Below, one piece after another: positions 1 through 6,948 of a DNA stretch of 30,654 nucleotides. This DNA is from Pseudomonadota bacterium (GTDB lineage: Bacteria; Desulfobacterota; Desulfomonilia; Desulfomonilales; Desulfomonilaceae). Position 1 is the stretch's first letter. Each line of letters starts with the position of its first letter. Location: positions 1-30,654 of the forward strand of contig JAZDOF010000888.1 in the NCBI GenBank assembly GCA_043799015.1, written 5' to 3'. Under the pieces are notes generated by a model. That model was not told where the DNA came from. It saw only the letters and a program-made list of their open reading frames with translations, and searched no databases. The position numbers and the translations under genes are program-made.

Positions 1-30
1 GGTGTTCAAACCTCGACACTTTCCTACATG

Positions 31-47
31 GTGACAAAAATTGTCAC
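31..47. promoter_or_regulatory. Perfect 7-3-7 inverted repeat GTGACAA-AAA-TTGTCAC, possible operator or packaging-related site
   Basis: Dyad read directly from the sequence, 30 nt upstream of the ATG at 77. Function is inferred only. Confidence 0.4.
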
Positions 48-76
48 TTCGTTTTACGGGCCGAAAAGGATTTGAC

Positions 77-1324
77 ATGAGCAAAACGCCACCTGCAAAC
101 CTGCGCCTGGAGTGGCTTGACCCTATGACGCTAAAACCGAATCCGTCGAACTTCCGGCGCCATCCCGAGCAGCAAAAGAAAGTGCTCGCCGCGATGATCA
201 CGGAAGTCGGATGGGCCGGTGCGCTTTTGCTCAATGAATCCACGGGCCATCTCATAGACGGCCACGCACGACAAGAAGATGCCGTTGCCCGAAACGAGGC
301 AGCGATCCCCGTGCTTGTCGGCGCCTGGTCACTCGCGGATGAGCGCAAGATACTCGCAACCCTCGACCCCATAGCCGCCATGGCCGAGCAGGCAGATGAC
401 ATCTACCGGGAACTCATGGAAGGTGTCGAGACGGAGAGCGAGGATTTGCGGGCGTGGTGTGATGGGGTAATAGAATCCATGCAGCCCCAAAACCCTGCCA
501 CTAAATCCGATACAGCCGAAAAACCTTCAATCATCAAGTCGGCATCGCTCGATGACATCCCACCCACAAGCCAAGAGATGGAGGTCTTACAGCATAAGCA
601 ATTCCTCGTGGAGTATTCAGGCGGCAAAGATTCATCCGCTGCAACGCTATGGCTCAAACACTACTTCCCGCAAGCATCGGTAACGCTGCTTTTTGTGGAT
701 ATGGGAGCGGACTTTCCAGGCTTTCAACTCTTTAATCACGTATTTTCCGAGTTCATCGACTACCCGCTTCAAGTCTTACGTACACCAATCAGCCAAATAG
801 AATTGATGCTTCAAAAAGGCGATTGGCCCATGTTTGTTCATCCCTACTGTCACGGCATACTGCATGATGCGCTCGACGTTTACGTGCAGGGTTATTCAAG
901 CGAGGACATTGTGGTTGTGCGTGGCGGTCGAGTATCCGAAAAAGCCGGCCGGTCCAAGGCGCGCAAGACGCGCTTCATGGAGATTGACCGGCTGCCGGGA
1001 TATCGCTACTTCCAGCCCCTGTATTTTTCCGACAAGGACAGCAGTGAAGTCATTATACGGGAAACGCAAGCTCCGCTATGGGATGGGTATCTGCATGGTT
1101 TGCAACGCACCGCATGCCGCATTTGTCCAGGTCAAAAGCCGGGGGCTTACGCTGCAATTCGTGCGAATTATTCCGATACTTGGTCCGAATTGATGGAGTT
1201 GGAGCGGCGTTTTGGGCCGGGTTGCTGGTGGCAAAACGAGGACAAGACGGGACGGGGCGACTTCGCGAGCATGGCGGATCGAGGGCAGGCGAAGTTTGAA
1301 GAGGGGAGCTACCGTGGCCGATAG
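77..1324 (+). CDS. ParB/Srx-like N-terminal domain fused to a PAPS-reductase-family (PP-loop) domain; candidate DNA-modification enzyme
   Basis: Start moved to ATG 77 (RBS AAAAGGA at 64-70). The N-terminus LKPNPSNFRRHPEQQ...LIDGHARQ matches phage ParB-like domains. The C-terminus has YSGGKDS, GGRVSEK, FQPLYF and RTACRICPG, matching the SGGKDS / GxRxxES / RxGCxxCP pattern of the PAPS reductase/DndC family. Confidence 0.8.
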   Translation: MSKTPPANLRLEWLDPMTLKPNPSNFRRHPEQQKKVLAAMITEVGWAGALLLNESTGHLIDGHARQEDAVARNEAAIPVLVGAWSLADERKILATLDPIAAMAEQADDIYRELMEGVETESEDLRAWCDGVIESMQPQNPATKSDTAEKPSIIKSASLDDIPPTSQEMEVLQHKQFLVEYSGGKDSSAATLWLKHYFPQASVTLLFVDMGADFPGFQLFNHVFSEFIDYPLQVLRTPISQIELMLQKGDWPMFVHPYCHGILHDALDVYVQGYSSEDIVVVRGGRVSEKAGRSKARKTRFMEIDRLPGYRYFQPLYFSDKDSSEVIIRETQAPLWDGYLHGLQRTACRICPGQKPGAYAAIRANYSDTWSELMELERRFGPGCWWQNEDKTGRGDFASMADRGQAKFEEGSYRGR

Positions 1325-1333
1325 CCCCCTTTT
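1303..1333 (+). terminator. Possible intrinsic terminator between the convergent genes
   Basis: GGGGAGCTA-(10 nt)-TAGCCCCC followed by TTTT. The stem is imperfect and overlaps the stop codon at 1322-1324. Confidence 0.4.
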
Positions 1334-1337
1334 CCAA

Positions 1338-1733
1338 TCACCAAATAGGAATGACTTCAATCCCGGCGACTTTCAGCGCTTTTCCCGTGATGCCCCCCAC
1401 CGCGCAGCTCGGGGACATGCGGAACATGAAAGCGCGCGTCACGCCGTGCTCTTTCGCCATTTTGACGGCCGCGGCCGCGCCACGCCGGAACGTGATGGTC
1501 TTTTCCCGGCCAATGCGGGAGCGGGTTTCAGGATCGGTCTCAAACACTCGGCCCTTGATGGTCTTGACGGGCGGGCGCGGACACTTCAAGCCGCCGGCCA
1601 TTTCGGGGCAGATGGGCAAAACCTTGACGCCTCGAGCCTCCAAATCCTTGATGGCCTTGCTCTTGGGCGTGGGCCGTCCGTGCCATCGGCAGGTGACGCC
1701 ACAAGAGCAAGCCGAAGCTATAACTGTCTCCAT
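1338..1733 (-). CDS. DUF523 family protein (TudS-like 2-/4-thiouracil desulfidase, predicted [4Fe-4S])
   Basis: Motifs SACSCGVTCRWHG, ICPEMAGGLKCPRPP and MSPSCA match the DUF523 pattern SACLLGxxCRYDG / CPExxGGLxxPRxP / SPSCG. RBS GGAGGG lies upstream. Confidence 0.85.
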   Translation of the reverse strand: METVIASACSCGVTCRWHGRPTPKSKAIKDLEARGVKVLPICPEMAGGLKCPRPPVKTIKGRVFETDPETRSRIGREKTITFRRGAAAAVKMAKEHGVTRAFMFRMSPSCAVGGITGKALKVAGIEVIPIW

Positions 1734-2192
1734 TCATCCCTCCAGATTGATCGGGCTCGATGCGATCCTCAACACCCATTCCTCCAGCGAGCCGGGGTTT
1801 TTCAGCCCGTCGCCCGTCTCGGGGCTCTCCCAATAGGCGCGGACGAAGATCTCCATCACGGCCCGCTCGAAGTGGCTGAGCGCCTGGAGGCGCGCCAAGA
1901 AGTCTTTCGGCTCCACGTTCCATTTTTCGTCCGTCCGATCCAACTCCATGGAGTCGGCGGCGGACATAATGACGTGCTGCCCGGCGAGCTGCGGTGTAAG
2001 CATCGTGCCGTTGAACGCATCGATCAGGAGCGCGACTTCATTCCCGCTGAATTTCCCGCGCAGGTCCAGGAGCGTCCTGGCGTAAAGCGTCGGGAAGGCG
2101 TCGAGGATGTATTCGGCGCCGCTGGTTTTGTTGCGGCAGTTGGTTGTGAGCCACTTTTCGGTGGCTTCGCTGACTCGTGTTGTGATTTTCAT
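1734..2192 (-). CDS. Hypothetical protein, possible ribbon-helix-helix-like N-terminus
   Basis: 152 aa ORF with RBS GAGGAGG, tightly coupled to its neighbours (TAA-CCC-ATG upstream, TGA-ATG downstream). The N-terminus MKITTRVSEATEKWL has a strand-then-helix pattern like RHH proteins. Confidence 0.65.
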   Translation of the reverse strand: MKITTRVSEATEKWLTTNCRNKTSGAEYILDAFPTLYARTLLDLRGKFSGNEVALLIDAFNGTMLTPQLAGQHVIMSAADSMELDRTDEKWNVEPKDFLARLQALSHFERAVMEIFVRAYWESPETGDGLKNPGSLEEWVLRIASSPINLEG

Positions 2193-2195
2193 GGG

Positions 2196-2453
2196 TTATT
2201 CCTCCTCTTTCAGGATTCCGGCTTTTTTCAGATCAGTCTCGACGGCGTCGGCCAGGTTTCCGTCAAATGGCGCTCCATGATTTGCGGCCGTGAACCAGTG
2301 CCGCCGATTATTCGGGCAATCATCGCGGCATCCTCGGCCGCAACTGCATCCAGGATCGGTATAGTTGATCAGTTGCGAGCCGTGCTTCTTGGCGATTGCC
2401 GCCGCCTTGCGAGGCAAATGTCCGTATCCACACAAAAATTGATATTCGCTCAT
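2196..2453 (-). CDS. Small Cys-cluster hypothetical protein
   Basis: 85 aa, RBS AGAGGAG, motif GCSCGRGCRDDCP. Confidence 0.65.
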   Translation of the reverse strand: MSEYQFLCGYGHLPRKAAAIAKKHGSQLINYTDPGCSCGRGCRDDCPNNRRHWFTAANHGAPFDGNLADAVETDLKKAGILKEEE

Positions 2454-2466
2454 GATTTACTCCTCT

Positions 2467-2485
2467 GCCGGGATGGGCTCCCGGC
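2467..2485 (-). promoter_or_regulatory. 7-bp hairpin immediately 5' of the RBS of the 2453 gene
   Basis: On the minus strand, GCCGGGA-GCCCA-TCCCGGC is followed directly by AGAGGAG. Confidence 0.35.
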
Positions 2486-2498
2486 CGGCCATGGCTGG

Positions 2499-3266
2499 TT
2501 ATGCAACCCTAATCCCCCAACTTCTCCCGTTAGCGCCCTTCCGGTCTATCCATGCCTGGACCGGCGTGGAAGCGGGAACGATCACAATCACATGTCGTTC
2601 CCAATGGGTTTCAGCTCCACCGGAATACAGATTTCCTGTGTCATGGATGAGGGTGGCCTTTCCCGCGTACGTGCCATGAGCGGTCGCGCCCGCATTAACC
2701 TTTTTTTCGAAGAAGTGGAGTACGTGCAGTTCGTTATCCGCACTTTTGGGTCCGTCCGTCCTGGCGTACAGCCGCAGATAAGGTCGGAGGTTTCCCTTCC
2801 GGTCATGGTCCAGCTTAAAGATCCACAAGATCCGTTTCCCAACCAACTCTTCAGGTCGCACCCGCTCATTATCCAGTCTGGCGCGAATGACGAGCCCGAA
2901 AGGCTTCGAATCTCGATATCGCCCGCACACGACCGAGTCGCCATTTACGTGCATGAGCATGGGCAGCGTCCCGAGGAGGCTGACATACTTAAACTGACGG
3001 CCCCTTTCCGCCCTTCTGTGCACATACTTCTGCTCGTTCAGAATGGCGAGGCTTTCAGCGCGGTGCTCTTCGAAGTTCTCGCGCACCCAAACGGCGTCAC
3101 GGGCGTTCTTGGCTCGCCTGAATTCCTCTTTTTCAAAATCGGACATGGCGGCCCACTCCTCGTCCGTGTGGTGACCGATCAGGTTAATGTCCGTGGTTTC
3201 TTCTTTTTCCTCAGACTCCAGAAGGAACTCTTCAATGTCCTGAAATGCATTTCTCGATGGCTTCAT
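2499..3266 (-). CDS. Hypothetical protein with acidic N-terminus
   Basis: Start moved to ATG 3266 (MKPSRNAF..., purine-rich GAGAGGAAG upstream). The longer track ORF from 3467 overlaps the upstream gene. No family recognised. Confidence 0.6.
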   Translation of the reverse strand: MKPSRNAFQDIEEFLLESEEKEETTDINLIGHHTDEEWAAMSDFEKEEFRRAKNARDAVWVRENFEEHRAESLAILNEQKYVHRRAERGRQFKYVSLLGTLPMLMHVNGDSVVCGRYRDSKPFGLVIRARLDNERVRPEELVGKRILWIFKLDHDRKGNLRPYLRLYARTDGPKSADNELHVLHFFEKKVNAGATAHGTYAGKATLIHDTGNLYSGGAETHWERHVIVIVPASTPVQAWIDRKGANGRSWGIRVA

Positions 3267-3603
3267 TCCATTCTTCCTCTCTTTTTCGATAAGGTCCGGT
3301 GCCGTGATGACGATAAAACCCATATTTCTTAGCGACATCGTTGAAATGCCGCCAAACCCAGCGGACAAACCGACGGTAACCAACTTTCCCGCCCTTCTTC
3401 CCCTCGTACCATCGGTTACAGCGCTCGGCCTCCAGGGCGAGCAATTCAGTCTCCTGGATGCAGTCATCGCGGAAGGTGTGCCAGAGGGCCGGGAACCGCT
3501 TCATGACTCCGAGCCTGGCGATGGTTCTGTAGTCCACTGGCCCCTTGGGGACGCTCTTGGAGCGCCCCGTTCGATGCCTCCATTCCGTTGTGCGGCTGGC
3601 CAT
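3232..3603 (-). CDS. Hypothetical protein with weak resemblance to sigma-70 region 2
   Basis: 123 aa, TAA-ATG coupling to the upstream gene, RBS GAGGG. The segment DDCIQETELLALEA...YRRFVRWVWRHFNDVAKK loosely resembles ECF sigma region 2. Confidence 0.55.
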   Translation of the reverse strand: MASRTTEWRHRTGRSKSVPKGPVDYRTIARLGVMKRFPALWHTFRDDCIQETELLALEAERCNRWYEGKKGGKVGYRRFVRWVWRHFNDVAKKYGFYRHHGTGPYRKREEEWNEAIEKCISGH

Positions 3604-3963
3604 TTAAACCCTCGCGAAAATGGTTCCGTCCCATTCGTAATCAACGCCATTTTTCAGTTCGATGCATCGCGGTTCCACCATCATGGATGCCGTGCATACA
3701 ATCTTTCCCTTTGGCGTTTCCCATACCCTGAAGTCTTCTCCGTACTCATCGTGGGCGGCTTCCAGTATTGCCGAAAATGTCTGCCACAAGGGTTCTGCTG
3801 TGATAAGATTTTCATAGTTATCCGCTGTAGCGGGGATGTCGTTCTCGGTCATGAATTCCTCCACGGCCTCAATGAAATCGGAATCCTCGAATCCGTCTTC
3901 ATCGCGAATCTGGACTGTTTTTTCGATTCCGGTATTCCTGACTTTCAGCGTATACTCTTTCAT
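3604..3963 (-). CDS. Small acidic hypothetical protein, first gene of the leftward operon
   Basis: 119 aa, strong RBS GGAGGAGA, D/E-rich, directly downstream of the minus-strand promoter. Confidence 0.7.
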   Translation of the reverse strand: MKEYTLKVRNTGIEKTVQIRDEDGFEDSDFIEAVEEFMTENDIPATADNYENLITAEPLWQTFSAILEAAHDEYGEDFRVWETPKGKIVCTASMMVEPRCIELKNGVDYEWDGTIFARV

Positions 3964-4026
3964 GGTCTCCTCCGTTTCGGTCCATCTTCGCCCGTCATGG
4001 GCCGTTCAATCCTTCATGGTGATCTA

Positions 4027-4054
4027 ATTTTAACGATCTGCAAGCAAAAGTCAA
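4027..4054 (-). promoter_or_regulatory. Sigma70-type promoter TTGACT-N16-TAAAAT with upstream T-tracts (UP-element-like)
   Basis: Near-consensus hexamers on the minus strand, about 65 nt upstream of ATG 3963. A/T tracts at 4059-4073. Confidence 0.7.
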
Positions 4055-4123
4055 GCAGAAAAAAAGCAAAAAATCATCCCACGTCAAAAAAAGTTGTAAA
4101 CCGGCTCCGCGAAAGGATTTGCG

Positions 4124-4768
4124 ATGCTTGACGCCCCCAAAGTCAAACAGCGGATCGCCGATCTGGCCGCATCCTTCCGCGCGTGGGTGGACCTCACCGG
4201 CAAGGACAAGGCCAAGCTCACCAAAACGGACCGGTCCAAAATCACCGCCCTGGAAGACGATCTCTCCGCCATCCTGGAGCCCGAGCACCGTTCTGATTTC
4301 GTTACGGACGTGAACGGCATAGCCAGGTTCTTCGGGGTAACAGCCCGTTCTGTGCAGCTTTGGACGGCGAAGGGCTGCCCGAAGCTTAAGCACGGGCGCT
4401 ATGACCTCAAATTCGTCCATGAGTGGTGGATTGAGAATATCGCAAGCACCGGCAAAGACACCGAAGAGATTATCGAGCTGCGAAAAGAACACCTGCGATG
4501 GAAAATAGCGATAGATCGCATGAAGGCCGAGCAGACCAGGGGCGAATTGATCCCGCTCGAAGAGATATCCCCTGCATGGTGCGCCCGAATGGCGGCGGTA
4601 TCCAGCGGCCTCGACCAACTTGAATACCGGTTGCCGCCTCTCCTGGAGGGGCTGAGCCAGAACGATATGAGGCCGAAGATAGTTGAGCTCGTATGGAAGA
4701 TGAAAAACGCATTCTGCCAGACGGGCAAATTCACGCCCGCGAAGGATGGCAATGGCACAAAGAAATAG
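4124..4768 (+). CDS. terS: Terminase small subunit (Nu1-like)
   Basis: Winged HTH VNGIARFFGVTARSVQLWTAKGCP...YDLKFVHEWW, then a coiled coil and GELIPLEE. Overlaps the start of the large terminase gene. Confidence 0.85.
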   Translation: MLDAPKVKQRIADLAASFRAWVDLTGKDKAKLTKTDRSKITALEDDLSAILEPEHRSDFVTDVNGIARFFGVTARSVQLWTAKGCPKLKHGRYDLKFVHEWWIENIASTGKDTEEIIELRKEHLRWKIAIDRMKAEQTRGELIPLEEISPAWCARMAAVSSGLDQLEYRLPPLLEGLSQNDMRPKIVELVWKMKNAFCQTGKFTPAKDGNGTKK

Positions 4769-6728
4769 CGCCGTAGCTGAGATATCATGGCTGCCCGGCG
4801 AGCTCGAAGCCATGCGGCCCGCAGAGCGCACTCATCCCGCGGACTGGATCGAATGTCGGTGGCCCCTGCCTTCGGATTCGGCCATCAAGGGCTATTGCGA
4901 CCTGTCCATGATTCCTCAATTCCGCCCGGTTATCGAGGATTTCATGAATCCGGACGTGGATGAAATCTATCTATGCTGCTCGTCTCAGAGCGCGAAAACC
5001 ACGGTATGCCTTGCACTTTCGGCCTATGTGGCTCATCAGAAAAAATGGCCCGTGATATTCGTGCTCGCCGACCAACTCACGGCCGAGGATGAGATGAGCA
5101 CCAAGCGGGTGAAACCGGCCTTCGAGAACGATGAATACCTGTGCAGAGCTATCGATTATAGCCGGTGGACGAAAAACACTCGCGGGTTTCTCGGCGGGCA
5201 TGGCATCATATTCTCATGGGCTTCATCCGTCGCTCAAACCGCGTCAAGGTCAGCCGGGCTGGTAATCGCCGATGAAATCAACAAACCCGGTTATGATCCA
5301 TCGCCCGAAGAAGGCGATAAAATCCTCTACATCATCCAGCGCCTGGAAACCTATTGGGGAGCCACGTTCATCGGCTCATCGACTCCCACCACGGTTACCG
5401 GCAGAATCACGGCCATCGGCAATAGATCGGATGTTCTTCCATTCGACAACCACGTCCCTTGTCACAAGTGCGGCCAGAAGCAGCCATTGCGATTCTCGCG
5501 GGAGCACGCTTATGGCTTCGATGAGTGCAAATATCGCGGAGAAGATGGACGCCTCCACAATCTCGGTCAAGTGGTGTGGGAGGGCGGAAGAAAGGCCTCC
5601 ATGGCTCAGATCTATGAGACAGCTCGGTATGAATGCGGTGAATGTGGCGAGAAGTGGACTACGGCCCAGAAGAATCAGGCGCTGCAAGATATGATTGCCG
5701 TCCCGCGCCGGGAGCCCGCCGGGGAGCGTAAACACTGGTATCACAACGGGCGGCTGACTACCCTTTTCCAGGGGGGCCGGATTGAAAAGCTGGTGGCTGA
5801 CTTCGTGGGGATCGTGAATCAGGAGGGCGAAGACCGAAAGCGCCAGCTCGCAACGTGGTTTCAGAACGCGCACGCGGAGCCGTCTACCCAAAAAACCATG
5901 GAGCGTAAGGAATCCTCCATCCTCGCCCTTCGTGACGACCGCCCGCGCGGCCTCGTTCCATCCGAGGGCGTGCTCGGCCTTACGTGCGGGGCCGATACTC
6001 AGGACAACGGCTTTTATTACTACGTCCATGCTTGGGGCCGGCCGGTGGGTGGGAAGCTCGAAACATGGCTTGTTCGTGACGGCTTCGTCGAGACGCTCGA
6101 GGCCCTAGAGCAGATCATAACAGGCAAGTTCCAGGACGCGCAAAACGTGGATTACGTCGTATCCATGACCTTGATCGACGCCATGGGTCACAGAACGTCC
6201 GAAGTTTACGATTGGTGCAGGACGAAGGCCGATATCAAGCCAGCGCAGGGCGTCCAGCGCATGGCCACTCCATACCAAATCAGCATGCTCGAATTCTATC
6301 CCAACTCCACCCGGCAGATCCCCGGAGGGCTCAGGCTCTATCGGCTCAATTCGAACTATTACAAGGACGCCTTGTACGCCAAGATTGGCGTTGCTCCGGG
6401 AGATCCGGGAGCATTCCACGCCCATTCAGAGATCGGGGAGGACTACGCCAAGCAGATGACAGCCGAATTCATCAACGATCAGGGCTTTTGGGACTGCCCG
6501 GGCAATCGACCCAACCATGCTTGGGACGGCTCATATCTCGCCCTGGCAGCTGCCGACATCCTCGGCATTCAGCATTGGGGCGGAACCAAGCCCGCCTCGC
6601 AGCAGCAACAGCCGCGCCACGGACACCCGCAGGCACAGCAGAATTACCCGACGCCACAGGGCTCGGCTCAGGATAGGATTCATGAGGCATTACGAGGACG
6701 CACCATCAACCCATACGGGAGGCGGTAG
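4752..6728 (+). CDS. terL: Terminase large subunit (lambda GpA family)
   Basis: Walker A-like SSQSAKTT, Walker B LVIADE, STPT motif, Zn ribbons CHKCG and YECGECG, nuclease motifs LTCGADTQ, IDAMG and NHAWD. The start is 4752 (RBS GAAGGA) or 4746. Confidence 0.92.
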   Translation: MAQRNSAVAEISWLPGELEAMRPAERTHPADWIECRWPLPSDSAIKGYCDLSMIPQFRPVIEDFMNPDVDEIYLCCSSQSAKTTVCLALSAYVAHQKKWPVIFVLADQLTAEDEMSTKRVKPAFENDEYLCRAIDYSRWTKNTRGFLGGHGIIFSWASSVAQTASRSAGLVIADEINKPGYDPSPEEGDKILYIIQRLETYWGATFIGSSTPTTVTGRITAIGNRSDVLPFDNHVPCHKCGQKQPLRFSREHAYGFDECKYRGEDGRLHNLGQVVWEGGRKASMAQIYETARYECGECGEKWTTAQKNQALQDMIAVPRREPAGERKHWYHNGRLTTLFQGGRIEKLVADFVGIVNQEGEDRKRQLATWFQNAHAEPSTQKTMERKESSILALRDDRPRGLVPSEGVLGLTCGADTQDNGFYYYVHAWGRPVGGKLETWLVRDGFVETLEALEQIITGKFQDAQNVDYVVSMTLIDAMGHRTSEVYDWCRTKADIKPAQGVQRMATPYQISMLEFYPNSTRQIPGGLRLYRLNSNYYKDALYAKIGVAPGDPGAFHAHSEIGEDYAKQMTAEFINDQGFWDCPGNRPNHAWDGSYLALAAADILGIQHWGGTKPASQQQQPRHGHPQAQQNYPTPQGSAQDRIHEALRGRTINPYGRR

Positions 6729-6729
6729 C

Positions 6730-6948
6730 ATGATGCAGGATACGGTGCAGCGTCACGAGGAAAACAAGGAAGTTGTGGGGGGAATCAAGTCCGAGTATCG
6801 AATTAACGGCTGCGCTCCGTGCCCATTCTGTGAAGCCCCATGGGCTCCCGTGCGGAACGTGCTTCCATGGGCGGGGAATATGCGGGTGCGGTACCATGTT
6901 TGCCGGCGGTGCGGGAAGAGCTTCAAGAGCGTGGAGGTATTTTGCTAG
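6730..6948 (+). CDS. Small Zn-finger protein, Ogr/Delta-like (possible late transcription activator)
   Basis: Starts 1 nt after the terL stop. CPFC...RVRYHVCRRCGKSFKSVE has the CxxC...RYxxCxxCxxxF pattern of Ogr/Delta-like fingers. Confidence 0.65.
   Translation: MMQDTVQRHEENKEVVGGIKSEYRINGCAPCPFCEAPWAPVRNVLPWAGNMRVRYHVCRRCGKSFKSVEVFC

Follow-up and report, generated by a model that had tools for sequence, protein, structure and literature searches.

A viral ParB-PAPS-reductase fusion paired with a TudS-type desulfidase: a predicted sulfur-based DNA-marking module

The fusion protein and its TudS neighbour

The DNA analysed here, referred to as the window, is a stretch of 30,654 nucleotides (contig JAZDOF010000888.1, positions 1 to 30,654 of the forward strand) from the metagenome-assembled genome (MAG) of a member of the Desulfomonilaceae (Desulfobacterota; assembly GCA_043799015.1). 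One of its genes, at 77-1324, fuses a ParB-like N-terminal domain to a PP-loop domain of the 3'-phosphoadenosine 5'-phosphosulfate (PAPS) reductase superfamily, and the gene that meets it tail to tail encodes a TudS/DUF523-type desulfidase (Table 1). Homologues of these two genes, called ParB-PAPS and TudS below, recur as neighbours in bacterial and archaeal viruses and, judging from their sequences and surroundings, the pair is probably a sulfur-based DNA-marking module.

A first-pass annotation, made from the letters alone, had described the N-terminus as ParB-like, and this was borne out at several levels. Over residues 4-127 the protein is similar to the ParB-type N-terminal regions of phage DNA methyltransferases and ParB-like proteins (PHROG 498, 1.6e-13; PHROG 620, 1.5e-9), a profile of 59 homologues finds solved ParB, Noc and Spo0J chains at about 1e-9 in a PDB sequence search, and the ParB structure 6sdk superposes on residues 8-143 of the AlphaFold2 (AF2) model with a Z score of 13.1. 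The model covers all 415 residues with a mean predicted local distance difference test (pLDDT) score of 91.4, and many members of the family have a Pfam ParB_N entry. Where ParB CTPases have GERRxR, this domain has DGHxR (DGHARQ in the window), with GHxR as the family consensus, one conserved arginine (R65), and G62 and R65 nearly invariant; the CTP-binding GERRxR motif of partition ParB clamps was not found in the window protein. The domain is 50-63% identical to that of phage ParB-N6_N4 DNA methyltransferase fusions, and from this resemblance the ParB-PAPS family looks like a domain swap of those well-known proteins. The Pro/Ser/Lys linker of the same annotation was also confirmed, in the region of residues 136-165, as were SGGKDS, the cysteine of HPYC and RTACRICP, at residues 181-186, 255-258 and 344-351.

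For the catalytic domain the best family match is PHROG 424, 'PAPS reductase' (1.6e-19, residues 140-390), and Pfam PAPS_reduct (PF01507) is barely reached, at 22.7 bits for a cut-off of 22.5. About 85 near-full-length ParB-PAPS fusions were found in metagenomes, and an exhaustive profile search clustered at 50% identity returned 148 clusters at E <= 1e-30, 957 at E <= 1e-10 and 4550 at E <= 1e-3, the best matches being mostly 380-460 residues long with the catalytic domain starting at about residue 150-190, which is the same fused layout. The PP-loop residues S, G, G, D and S together with C258, C347 and C350 are invariant in 59 homologues, and they remain so (36 sequences) after members of only 24-27% identity are added; the block W-x-G-Y-x-x-G-x-x-R-T-A-C-x-x-C-P is likewise invariant across the family. 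Apart from a methanogen virus, the named relatives are all MAGs of Desulfobacterota or Acidobacteriota, groups that include many anaerobes. At one relative (L033, 4210-6873) the ParB-PAPS gene is split by a DDE_5 transposase gene (Pfam 4.8e-76), which leaves ParB at 4270-4659 and PAPS at 6082-6870.

The neighbouring gene matches Pfam PF04463 at 2.6e-20 (73.3 bits, cut-off 34.7). Five of its residues, C9, C42, E44, S107 and C110, do not vary among 19 partner TudS sequences and correspond to C10, C43, E45, S101 and C104 of TudS_A (PMC10611767), and by this alignment its predicted cluster cysteines and its catalytic glutamate and serine are intact. Cys15 was considered as a mark of a PAPS-specific TudS subfamily and dropped, as some TudS proteins with no PAPS neighbour also have it. 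A predicted complex of the ParB-PAPS protein with TudS scored 0.01, which we count neither for nor against binding.

Table 1 Features of the ParB-PAPS/TudS locus in the window
Feature	Position	Strand	Evidence or remark
Promoter-like site TCGACA-17-AAAAAT, overlapped by the palindrome GTGACAAAAATTGTCAC (31-47)	13..47	+	Just 5' of the fusion gene
ParB-N :: PAPS-reductase-family PP-loop fusion gene	77..1324	+	Stop-free open reading frame, 415 aa
ParB/Srx-type N-terminal domain (residues 10-140)	104..496	+	PHROG 498/620; PDB ParB matches; Z 13.1 to 6sdk
Pro/Ser/Lys-rich flexible linker (residues 136-165 region)	497..529	+	pLDDT <50 at residues 141-145; alignment variable, gapped
PP-loop ATP-pyrophosphatase domain, PAPS-reductase/DndC superfamily (residues 152-415)	530..1321	+	PHROG 424; hhalign to DndC; fold comparison
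PP-loop motif SGGKDS (residues 181-186)	617..634	+	S, G, G, D, S invariant
Cys258 (HPYC, 255-258), first triad residue	848..850	+	Invariant; aligns with Cys of DndC 'FRWCTQ'
Cys347-x-x-Cys350 (RTACRICP, 344-351), second and third triad residues	1115..1126	+	Invariant; aligns with DndC 'GCWTC'
Spacer between convergent stop codons, 13 bp, terminator-free	1325..1337	.	Relatives mostly overlap by 8-43 nt
TudS/DUF523-type [4Fe-4S] desulfidase gene, 131 aa	1338..1733	-	Last gene of a six-gene leftward operon, 3963-1338
Small terminase (4124-4768) and gpA-type large terminase (4746-6728)	4124..6728	+	Context genes

Conservation of the pair and its DNA-modifying company

ParB-PAPS loci were collected from IMG/VR, GTDB genomes and assemblies with tblastn and family hidden Markov models and, once duplicates had been removed, 32 of them were informative. 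In 25 of these TudS is no more than 2 kb away, tail to tail in 21 (with 3' ends that mostly overlap by 8-43 nt), co-directional in two and elsewhere within 2 kb in the last two. In one of these two, from an Acidobacteriota MAG (L029, 7365-8555), a radical SAM gene on the TudS strand stands between the two partners. Seen from the TudS side, 19 of 20 informative IMG/VR loci, several new lineages included, have ParB-PAPS as the immediate neighbour, and only 13 of 50,697 GenBank phage records match the window TudS. Co-directional ParB-PAPS/TudS operons occur in at least four lineages. Among 23 loci, those that differ more in one gene tend to differ more in the other (Mantel r 0.55, p 2e-4, a kind of test that relatedness alone inflates), and the correlation fits inheritance of the pair as a cassette.

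The pair is also present in a cultured archaeal virus, Methanoculleus virus L4768/Blf4 (L038, 1242-2942; NC_074642.1), where it is co-directional and directly precedes the large terminase gene. There gp05, annotated as 'DNA modification methylase', is a ParB-PAPS fusion in which we detected no methyltransferase domain, and the 'hypothetical' gp06 is a TudS homologue with CGE replacing CPE. Another locus (L019, 7892-8537) seems to hold a pair that has decayed or been rearranged, as a truncated PAPS domain is immediately preceded, on the same strand, by a short stretch resembling TudS (E 4e-7).

The genes that accompany or are fused to the catalytic domain point to DNA. At L003 two consecutive ParB-N6_N4 methyltransferase genes (2837-5466) follow ParB-PAPS/TudS and are themselves followed by the large terminase gene, which places three ParB-fused enzymes in a row. 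On a metagenomic phage contig a single open reading frame of 1529 residues (P0260; L084, 3207-7796) joins, in this order, a D12 Dam methylase, a PAPS domain with the cysteine triad, an ATP-dependent DNA ligase and an XkdF-type protease. Its PAPS domain (28% identity, E 2e-32) reads SGGIDS, HPYC and RTACYCCP, and by its domain content the protein looks like a polyvalent DNA-modification protein; a further D12 methylase gene lies upstream of it. DNA as the substrate is thus supported by the ParB domain shared with methyltransferase fusions, by the methylase neighbours at L003 and by the Dam and ligase fusion. The first-pass annotation had called the product a non-methyl DNA-modifying enzyme, and of this the substrate is favoured by the same three lines of evidence and the protein is not a methyltransferase; the modification itself, and the protection of packaged DNA from restriction that was proposed with it, stay predictions.

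In the window itself the packaging genes lie less close than had been proposed: the terminase genes are indeed downstream, but 2.8 kb away, behind the six-gene leftward operon that ends with TudS. The fusion gene has an AAGGA Shine-Dalgarno sequence 6 nt 5' of its ATG. The sequence GTGACAAAAATTGTCAC is a perfect 17-bp palindrome 30 bp ahead of the gene's start, single-copy in the window with 0.02 expected by chance, and it is possibly an operator. Upstream of TudS in its operon a 152-codon gene (1734-2192, minus strand) translationally abuts the TudS start, and a distant phage has a homologue of it (L024, 11187-11585; 31% identity, E 4e-20) some 2 kb away from its own pair. Rfam gave no matches in window positions 1-5000. 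Public sequencing runs yielded only partial Logan contigs of an aquatic metagenome, with a word share of 0.16-0.22.

Kinship with DndC and with other PP-loop enzymes

Aligned by hhalign with two DndC sequences, both of which pass the TIGR03183 cut-off, the catalytic domain gave a probability of 93% (E 3.5e-7) over 208 columns. The PP-loop (FSGGKDS in DndC), C258 with the cysteine of RWC, and C347 and C350 with those of GCWTC are all in register. DndC is reported to depend on C280 for its [4Fe-4S] cluster (PMC11662687), and with the RWC and GCWTC cysteines assumed to be cluster ligands we infer that C258, C347 and C350 would bind such a cluster too. The earlier suggestion that the enzyme is 'possibly Fe-S and sulfur dependent' therefore gains from these DndC-aligned invariant cysteines and from the conserved TudS partner, with the cluster itself a prediction from the alignment.

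In the defence-system models of PADLOC the only matches are to SspD, BrxP and DndC, and all are weak. SspD (E 2.8e-5) is confined to model positions 3-61 of 277, that is to the PP-loop; DndC (E 0.03-0.05) covers about 32 PP-loop residues only; and BrxP (E 1.7e-4, 18 bits) extends over residues 172-370, corresponding to model positions 131-333 of 779. The window holds no BREX genes and the window protein no further domains, and the hhalign alignment stops at DndC residue 290 of 443, which leaves the C-terminal region of DndC (about 150 residues) with no counterpart.

At the profile level metabolic reductases are much further away. Adenosine 5'-phosphosulfate (APS) reductases taken from the host phylum, which score above the TIGR02055 cut-off, have CC...CxxC and a terminal RECGLH; the window protein has no ECGLH-type tail, and past C350 the family has no conserved cysteine. 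NCBIfam models of CysH and APS reductase gave no match to it at E <= 1, and hhalign to APS reductases gave a probability of 1.8% with the motifs out of register, despite structural similarity. The profile comparison that had been suggested as a check thus found no grouping with metabolic CysH; DndC aligns at 93% by hhalign, and the family models of DndC, SspD and QueC are not reached. Identity with QueC or IbrA was rejected, as Pfam QueC and DUF3440 (IbrA) are absent at E <= 1 and the QueC structure 3bl5 covers only residues 177-206 (E 0.034).

Structure comparison places the domain in the PAPS-reductase-like alpha/beta fold (2goy, Z 14.8, root-mean-square deviation 3.2 over 191 residues; 7lhs, 2oq2 and 1sur, Z 13.3-14.4). 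It is also similar, at Z of about 13-15, to GMP synthetase and TilS, with TtuA, NcsA and LarE near the same level, and the modelled fold is accordingly that of a generic PP-loop ATP pyrophosphatase, which does not discriminate among PP-loop enzymes. A PDB profile search returned no DndC, SspD or CysH at E <= 1 and a weak match to 'PptA' (21fy). The cellular proteins that come nearest, by sequence model and by predicted structure, are archaeal, namely the PUA-PAPS-reductase proteins MJ0973 and MJ0066 (NCBIfam PRK08576/PRK08557), which Swiss-Prot labels uncharacterised and for which we found no describing paper in the literature searched.

The MAG that carries the window is 94.6% complete, and its only PF01507 matches besides 77-1324 are TilS and GuaA; no CysH, APS reductase or DndC was found in it. 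On this result a phage PAPS reductase would find no assimilatory pathway in the host to feed. DndC is above cut-off in only 2 of 301 genomes of the host phylum. The MAG does encode DsrA (contig C838, 5109-6350; 610 bits, above cut-off) and its organism is presumed to be a dissimilatory sulfite or sulfate reducer. A DsrA-bearing host and anaerobe-rich relatives fit, as circumstantial evidence, an oxygen-sensitive Fe-S and sulfide chemistry in sulfide-rich cells. The host also has a TudS-DUF1722 protein of its own (RudS-type; L041, 651-1601, contig C327), which reads SPSSG where TudS proteins read SPSCG; barring misalignment, it seems to have a serine in place of the third cluster cysteine.

Proposed chemistry, alternatives and known systems

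Together these observations suggest that 77-1324 encodes a DNA-directed enzyme that first adenylates and then sulfurates its substrate, with TudS in the same module, and we give this reading a probability of roughly one half. By homology, the ParB/Srx domain would bring the enzyme to DNA and may nick it, a property of ParB/Srx proteins that has been discussed (PMC12839542). The PP-loop domain would then use ATP to adenylate a DNA oxygen, and sulfide at the free iron of the putative C258/C347/C350 [4Fe-4S] cluster would displace AMP, leaving sulfur in the DNA. TudS could strip thio groups from nucleic acid marked by mistake or from free nucleotides in the pool, or it might relay sulfide to the writer. 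Phage DNA marked around packaging may in this way be viewed differently by host restriction or by sulfur-sensing defences. Pure antagonism between writer and TudS is argued against by the co-directional operons in at least four lineages, and the need for a sulfide supplier by the abundant sulfide expected in such hosts.

Two targets would share this probability about equally. Kinship with DndC, BrxP and SspD, the parallel with DndB-DndC and the ligase fusion speak for a backbone phosphorothioate. What speaks for a thiolated base is the activity of TudS on thiocarbonyl pyrimidines, TudS being the known reverse enzyme for thiouracil (PMC10611767, PMC11417400), together with a cluster logic like that of TtuA. 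In its specific form, with a thio base such as 4-thio- or 2-thio-thymine written into the double-stranded DNA of the phage and TudS as its dedicated eraser or pool cleaner, the second proposal is a tentative one, with odds clearly below even.

Several results weigh against the sulfur-writing reading. No family model places the protein among the known sulfur-inserting enzymes, as there is no TIGR03183 (DndC) match at E <= 1, and the SspD and BrxP family models are not reached either. The cysteine dyad of DndC is absent, since 'GECPIQIDTS.PSCG' falls by hhalign in a DndC insert that has no counterpart here, and around 77-1324 there are no genes for a cysteine desulfurase, DndD/E or SspB/C, its neighbours being TudS, small genes and the terminase. 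The fold is equally near the non-sulfur enzymes GMP synthetase and TilS (Z 13-15), and the archaeal PUA-fused kin suggest RNA substrates. The pairing has exceptions as well. In 7 of the 32 ParB-PAPS loci TudS was not seen in the examined flanks, one of these genes being split by an insertion sequence and two of the loci (L007 and L030) having a TudS 5-7 kb off on the same contig. Conversely, four close TudS relatives (L059, L061, L062 and one contig of the Joint Genome Institute, JGI) have no ParB-PAPS in their examined flanks or gene lists, and in a fifth (L060) it lies 6.8 kb off on the same contig. Neither gene, then, strictly requires the other, and a strict dependence of TudS on ParB-PAPS was ruled out by these four relatives. 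TudS relatives with no adjacent ParB-PAPS are 55-63% identical and often stand behind AAA_5 and DUF2201 genes, just ahead of the small and large terminase genes; at L062 (477-4986) the gene in the small-terminase position (214 aa) and the large terminase (660 aa) have the same lengths as in the window, and L062 may be a near relative of the window phage with a different cassette.

The failed TIGR03183 and PADLOC models, together with the missing dyad, C-terminal region and partner genes, led us to reject membership of the window protein in the DndC family. The label 'DndC-type' of the first-pass annotation holds at the level of the superfamily and of the cysteines in register and fails at the level of the DndC, SspD and BrxP families; as far as the sequence can tell, it is probably right for the likely working mode and not for family membership.

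The likeliest of the rivals, itself unlikely, holds that the PP-loop domain thiolates free nucleotides or host or phage RNA, that TudS reverses or balances this reaction, and that the ParB/Srx domain is a nucleotide-binding or regulatory module. The preferred substrates of TudS enzymes are 4-thio-UMP, 4-thio-UTP and thiouracil (PMC10611767), the archaeal PUA-fused proteins are closest in structure, and ParB/Srx domains include kinases and NTPases, the PDB profile matches of this domain among them (SerK and sulfiredoxin). Set against this are a ParB domain that is the same as in phage DNA methyltransferase fusions, a catalytic domain that P0260 combines with a Dam methylase and a DNA ligase, and a gene that stands with DNA methylases ahead of the terminase.

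Quite unlikely is a DNA modification in which sulfur has no part. Here the adenylated DNA oxygen would be attacked by another nucleophile (an amine, an amino acid or a small molecule) in chemistry of the TilS, QueC-type or nitrile-synthetase kind, and the cysteines would form a structural metal site. A fold equally near TilS, GMP synthetase and the nitrile synthetase ArtA, and the seven loci with no TudS in the examined flanks (two of them with one 5-7 kb off), would suit this view; the cysteine triad in register with that of DndC, sole defence-family matches to the sulfur-inserting SspD, BrxP and DndC, and a conserved partner that is a sulfur-specific Fe-S enzyme all count against it.

Improbable is an anti-defence protein that modifies no DNA and acts as a DndC/SspD mimic, titrating or poisoning phosphorothioation-dependent restriction, or by cofactor depletion. 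A phage PAPS-domain gene is reported to counteract Dnd (bioRxiv 10.1101/2021.05.05.442762), but the strictly invariant PP-loop and triad argue for catalysis, and DndC is as rare in the host phylum as described above and was not found in the host MAG. A CysH-like PAPS or APS reductase that boosts host sulfate assimilation as an auxiliary metabolic gene is highly improbable: it has in its favour the JGI name 'PAPS reductase/FAD synthetase', the just-met Pfam threshold and a similarity to APS/PAPS reductases at Z 13-15, and against it the canonical SGGKDS that marks an ATP pyrophosphatase, the lack of an ECGLH-type cysteine or of any conserved cysteine past C350, the 1.8% of hhalign, the ParB fusion and a host MAG in which DsrA was found but neither CysH nor APS reductase.

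The architecture as such is not new: ParB is repeatedly met paired with or fused to PAPS reductase, a 'known unknown' of which IbrA/IbrB and DndB/DndC are examples, and annotations of phage PAPS reductases are common. In the literature searched, however, we found no description of a DndC-like cysteine triad on a ParB fusion, none of a conserved and usually 3'-overlapping ParB-PAPS/TudS pair across bacterial and archaeal viruses (nor any paper on a pairing of DUF523/TudS with phage PAPS reductase), and no link of a TudS-type partner to DNA modification. Phage 'PAPS reductases', the function of which has hardly been tested, are routinely counted as sulfur-metabolism helper genes (bioRxiv 10.64898/2026.02.18.706556), a label that our results overturn for the ParB-PAPS clade. 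If the sulfur-writing reading is right, the pair would be a minimal and portable phosphorothioation or thio-base system and a new class of phage anti-restriction mark, and TudS-type enzymes would gain a role in virus-host conflict; were the mark a thio base, it would be the first natural thio-nucleobase in DNA, made by a one-polypeptide sulfur 'writer' that dispenses with a cysteine desulfurase and with the accessory proteins of Dnd and Ssp. The same pair in the cultured Methanoculleus virus Blf4 makes this chemistry directly testable.

Among known systems DndC (DptC; DndABCDE) shares with the window protein the superfamily, the SGGKDS PP-loop and three aligned cysteines. Its ParB-superfamily partner, DndB, is a separate gene whereas here the ParB domain is fused, and the window gene is phage-borne, comes with TudS instead of a cysteine desulfurase and has no dndA, dndD or dndE. 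BrxP of BREX type 4 resembles the window protein in that it also has no DndC cysteine dyad (PMC12839542); in contrast to BrxP and SspD, the window protein has no DUF4007, DUF1795-like or ferredoxin-type extension, and its scores are far below family level.

The [4Fe-4S] PP-loop thiolases TtuA, NcsA, TtcA and LarE share the PP-loop fold (Z 12.6-13.3) and a three-cysteine site which, in the window protein as in these enzymes, would leave one iron free for sulfide. They form another PP-loop branch, however, and like TudS/RudS they act on tRNA or cofactor substrates, none of them being ParB-fused or known to act on DNA. In the archaeal PUA-PAPS-reductase(-ferredoxin) proteins the N-terminal domain is an RNA-binding PUA domain, where the window protein has ParB.

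Closest in setting are phage enzymes that carry DNA-modifying domains. The one experimental precedent, which counts in favour of the sulfur-writing reading, is a PAPS-Dam fusion of a Vibrio crassostreae podovirus that is reported to give resistance to the host Dnd system (bioRxiv 10.1101/2021.05.05.442762, cited in PMC13551039). Like the window gene, such PHROG 424 genes are phage-borne and fused or adjacent to DNA-modifying domains, the fusion partner being Dam in the Vibrio protein and ParB in that of the window; a pairing of these genes with TudS is unreported in the literature searched. Phage 'PAPS reductase' genes of PHROG 424, the window gene included, are probably anti-restriction genes. 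The ParB-N6_N4 methyltransferase fusions, finally, have the ParB domain in common with the window protein (50-63%) and occupy the same place ahead of the terminase, as at L003, but where they carry an S-adenosylmethionine-dependent methyltransferase the window protein has the PP-loop domain with its cysteine triad.

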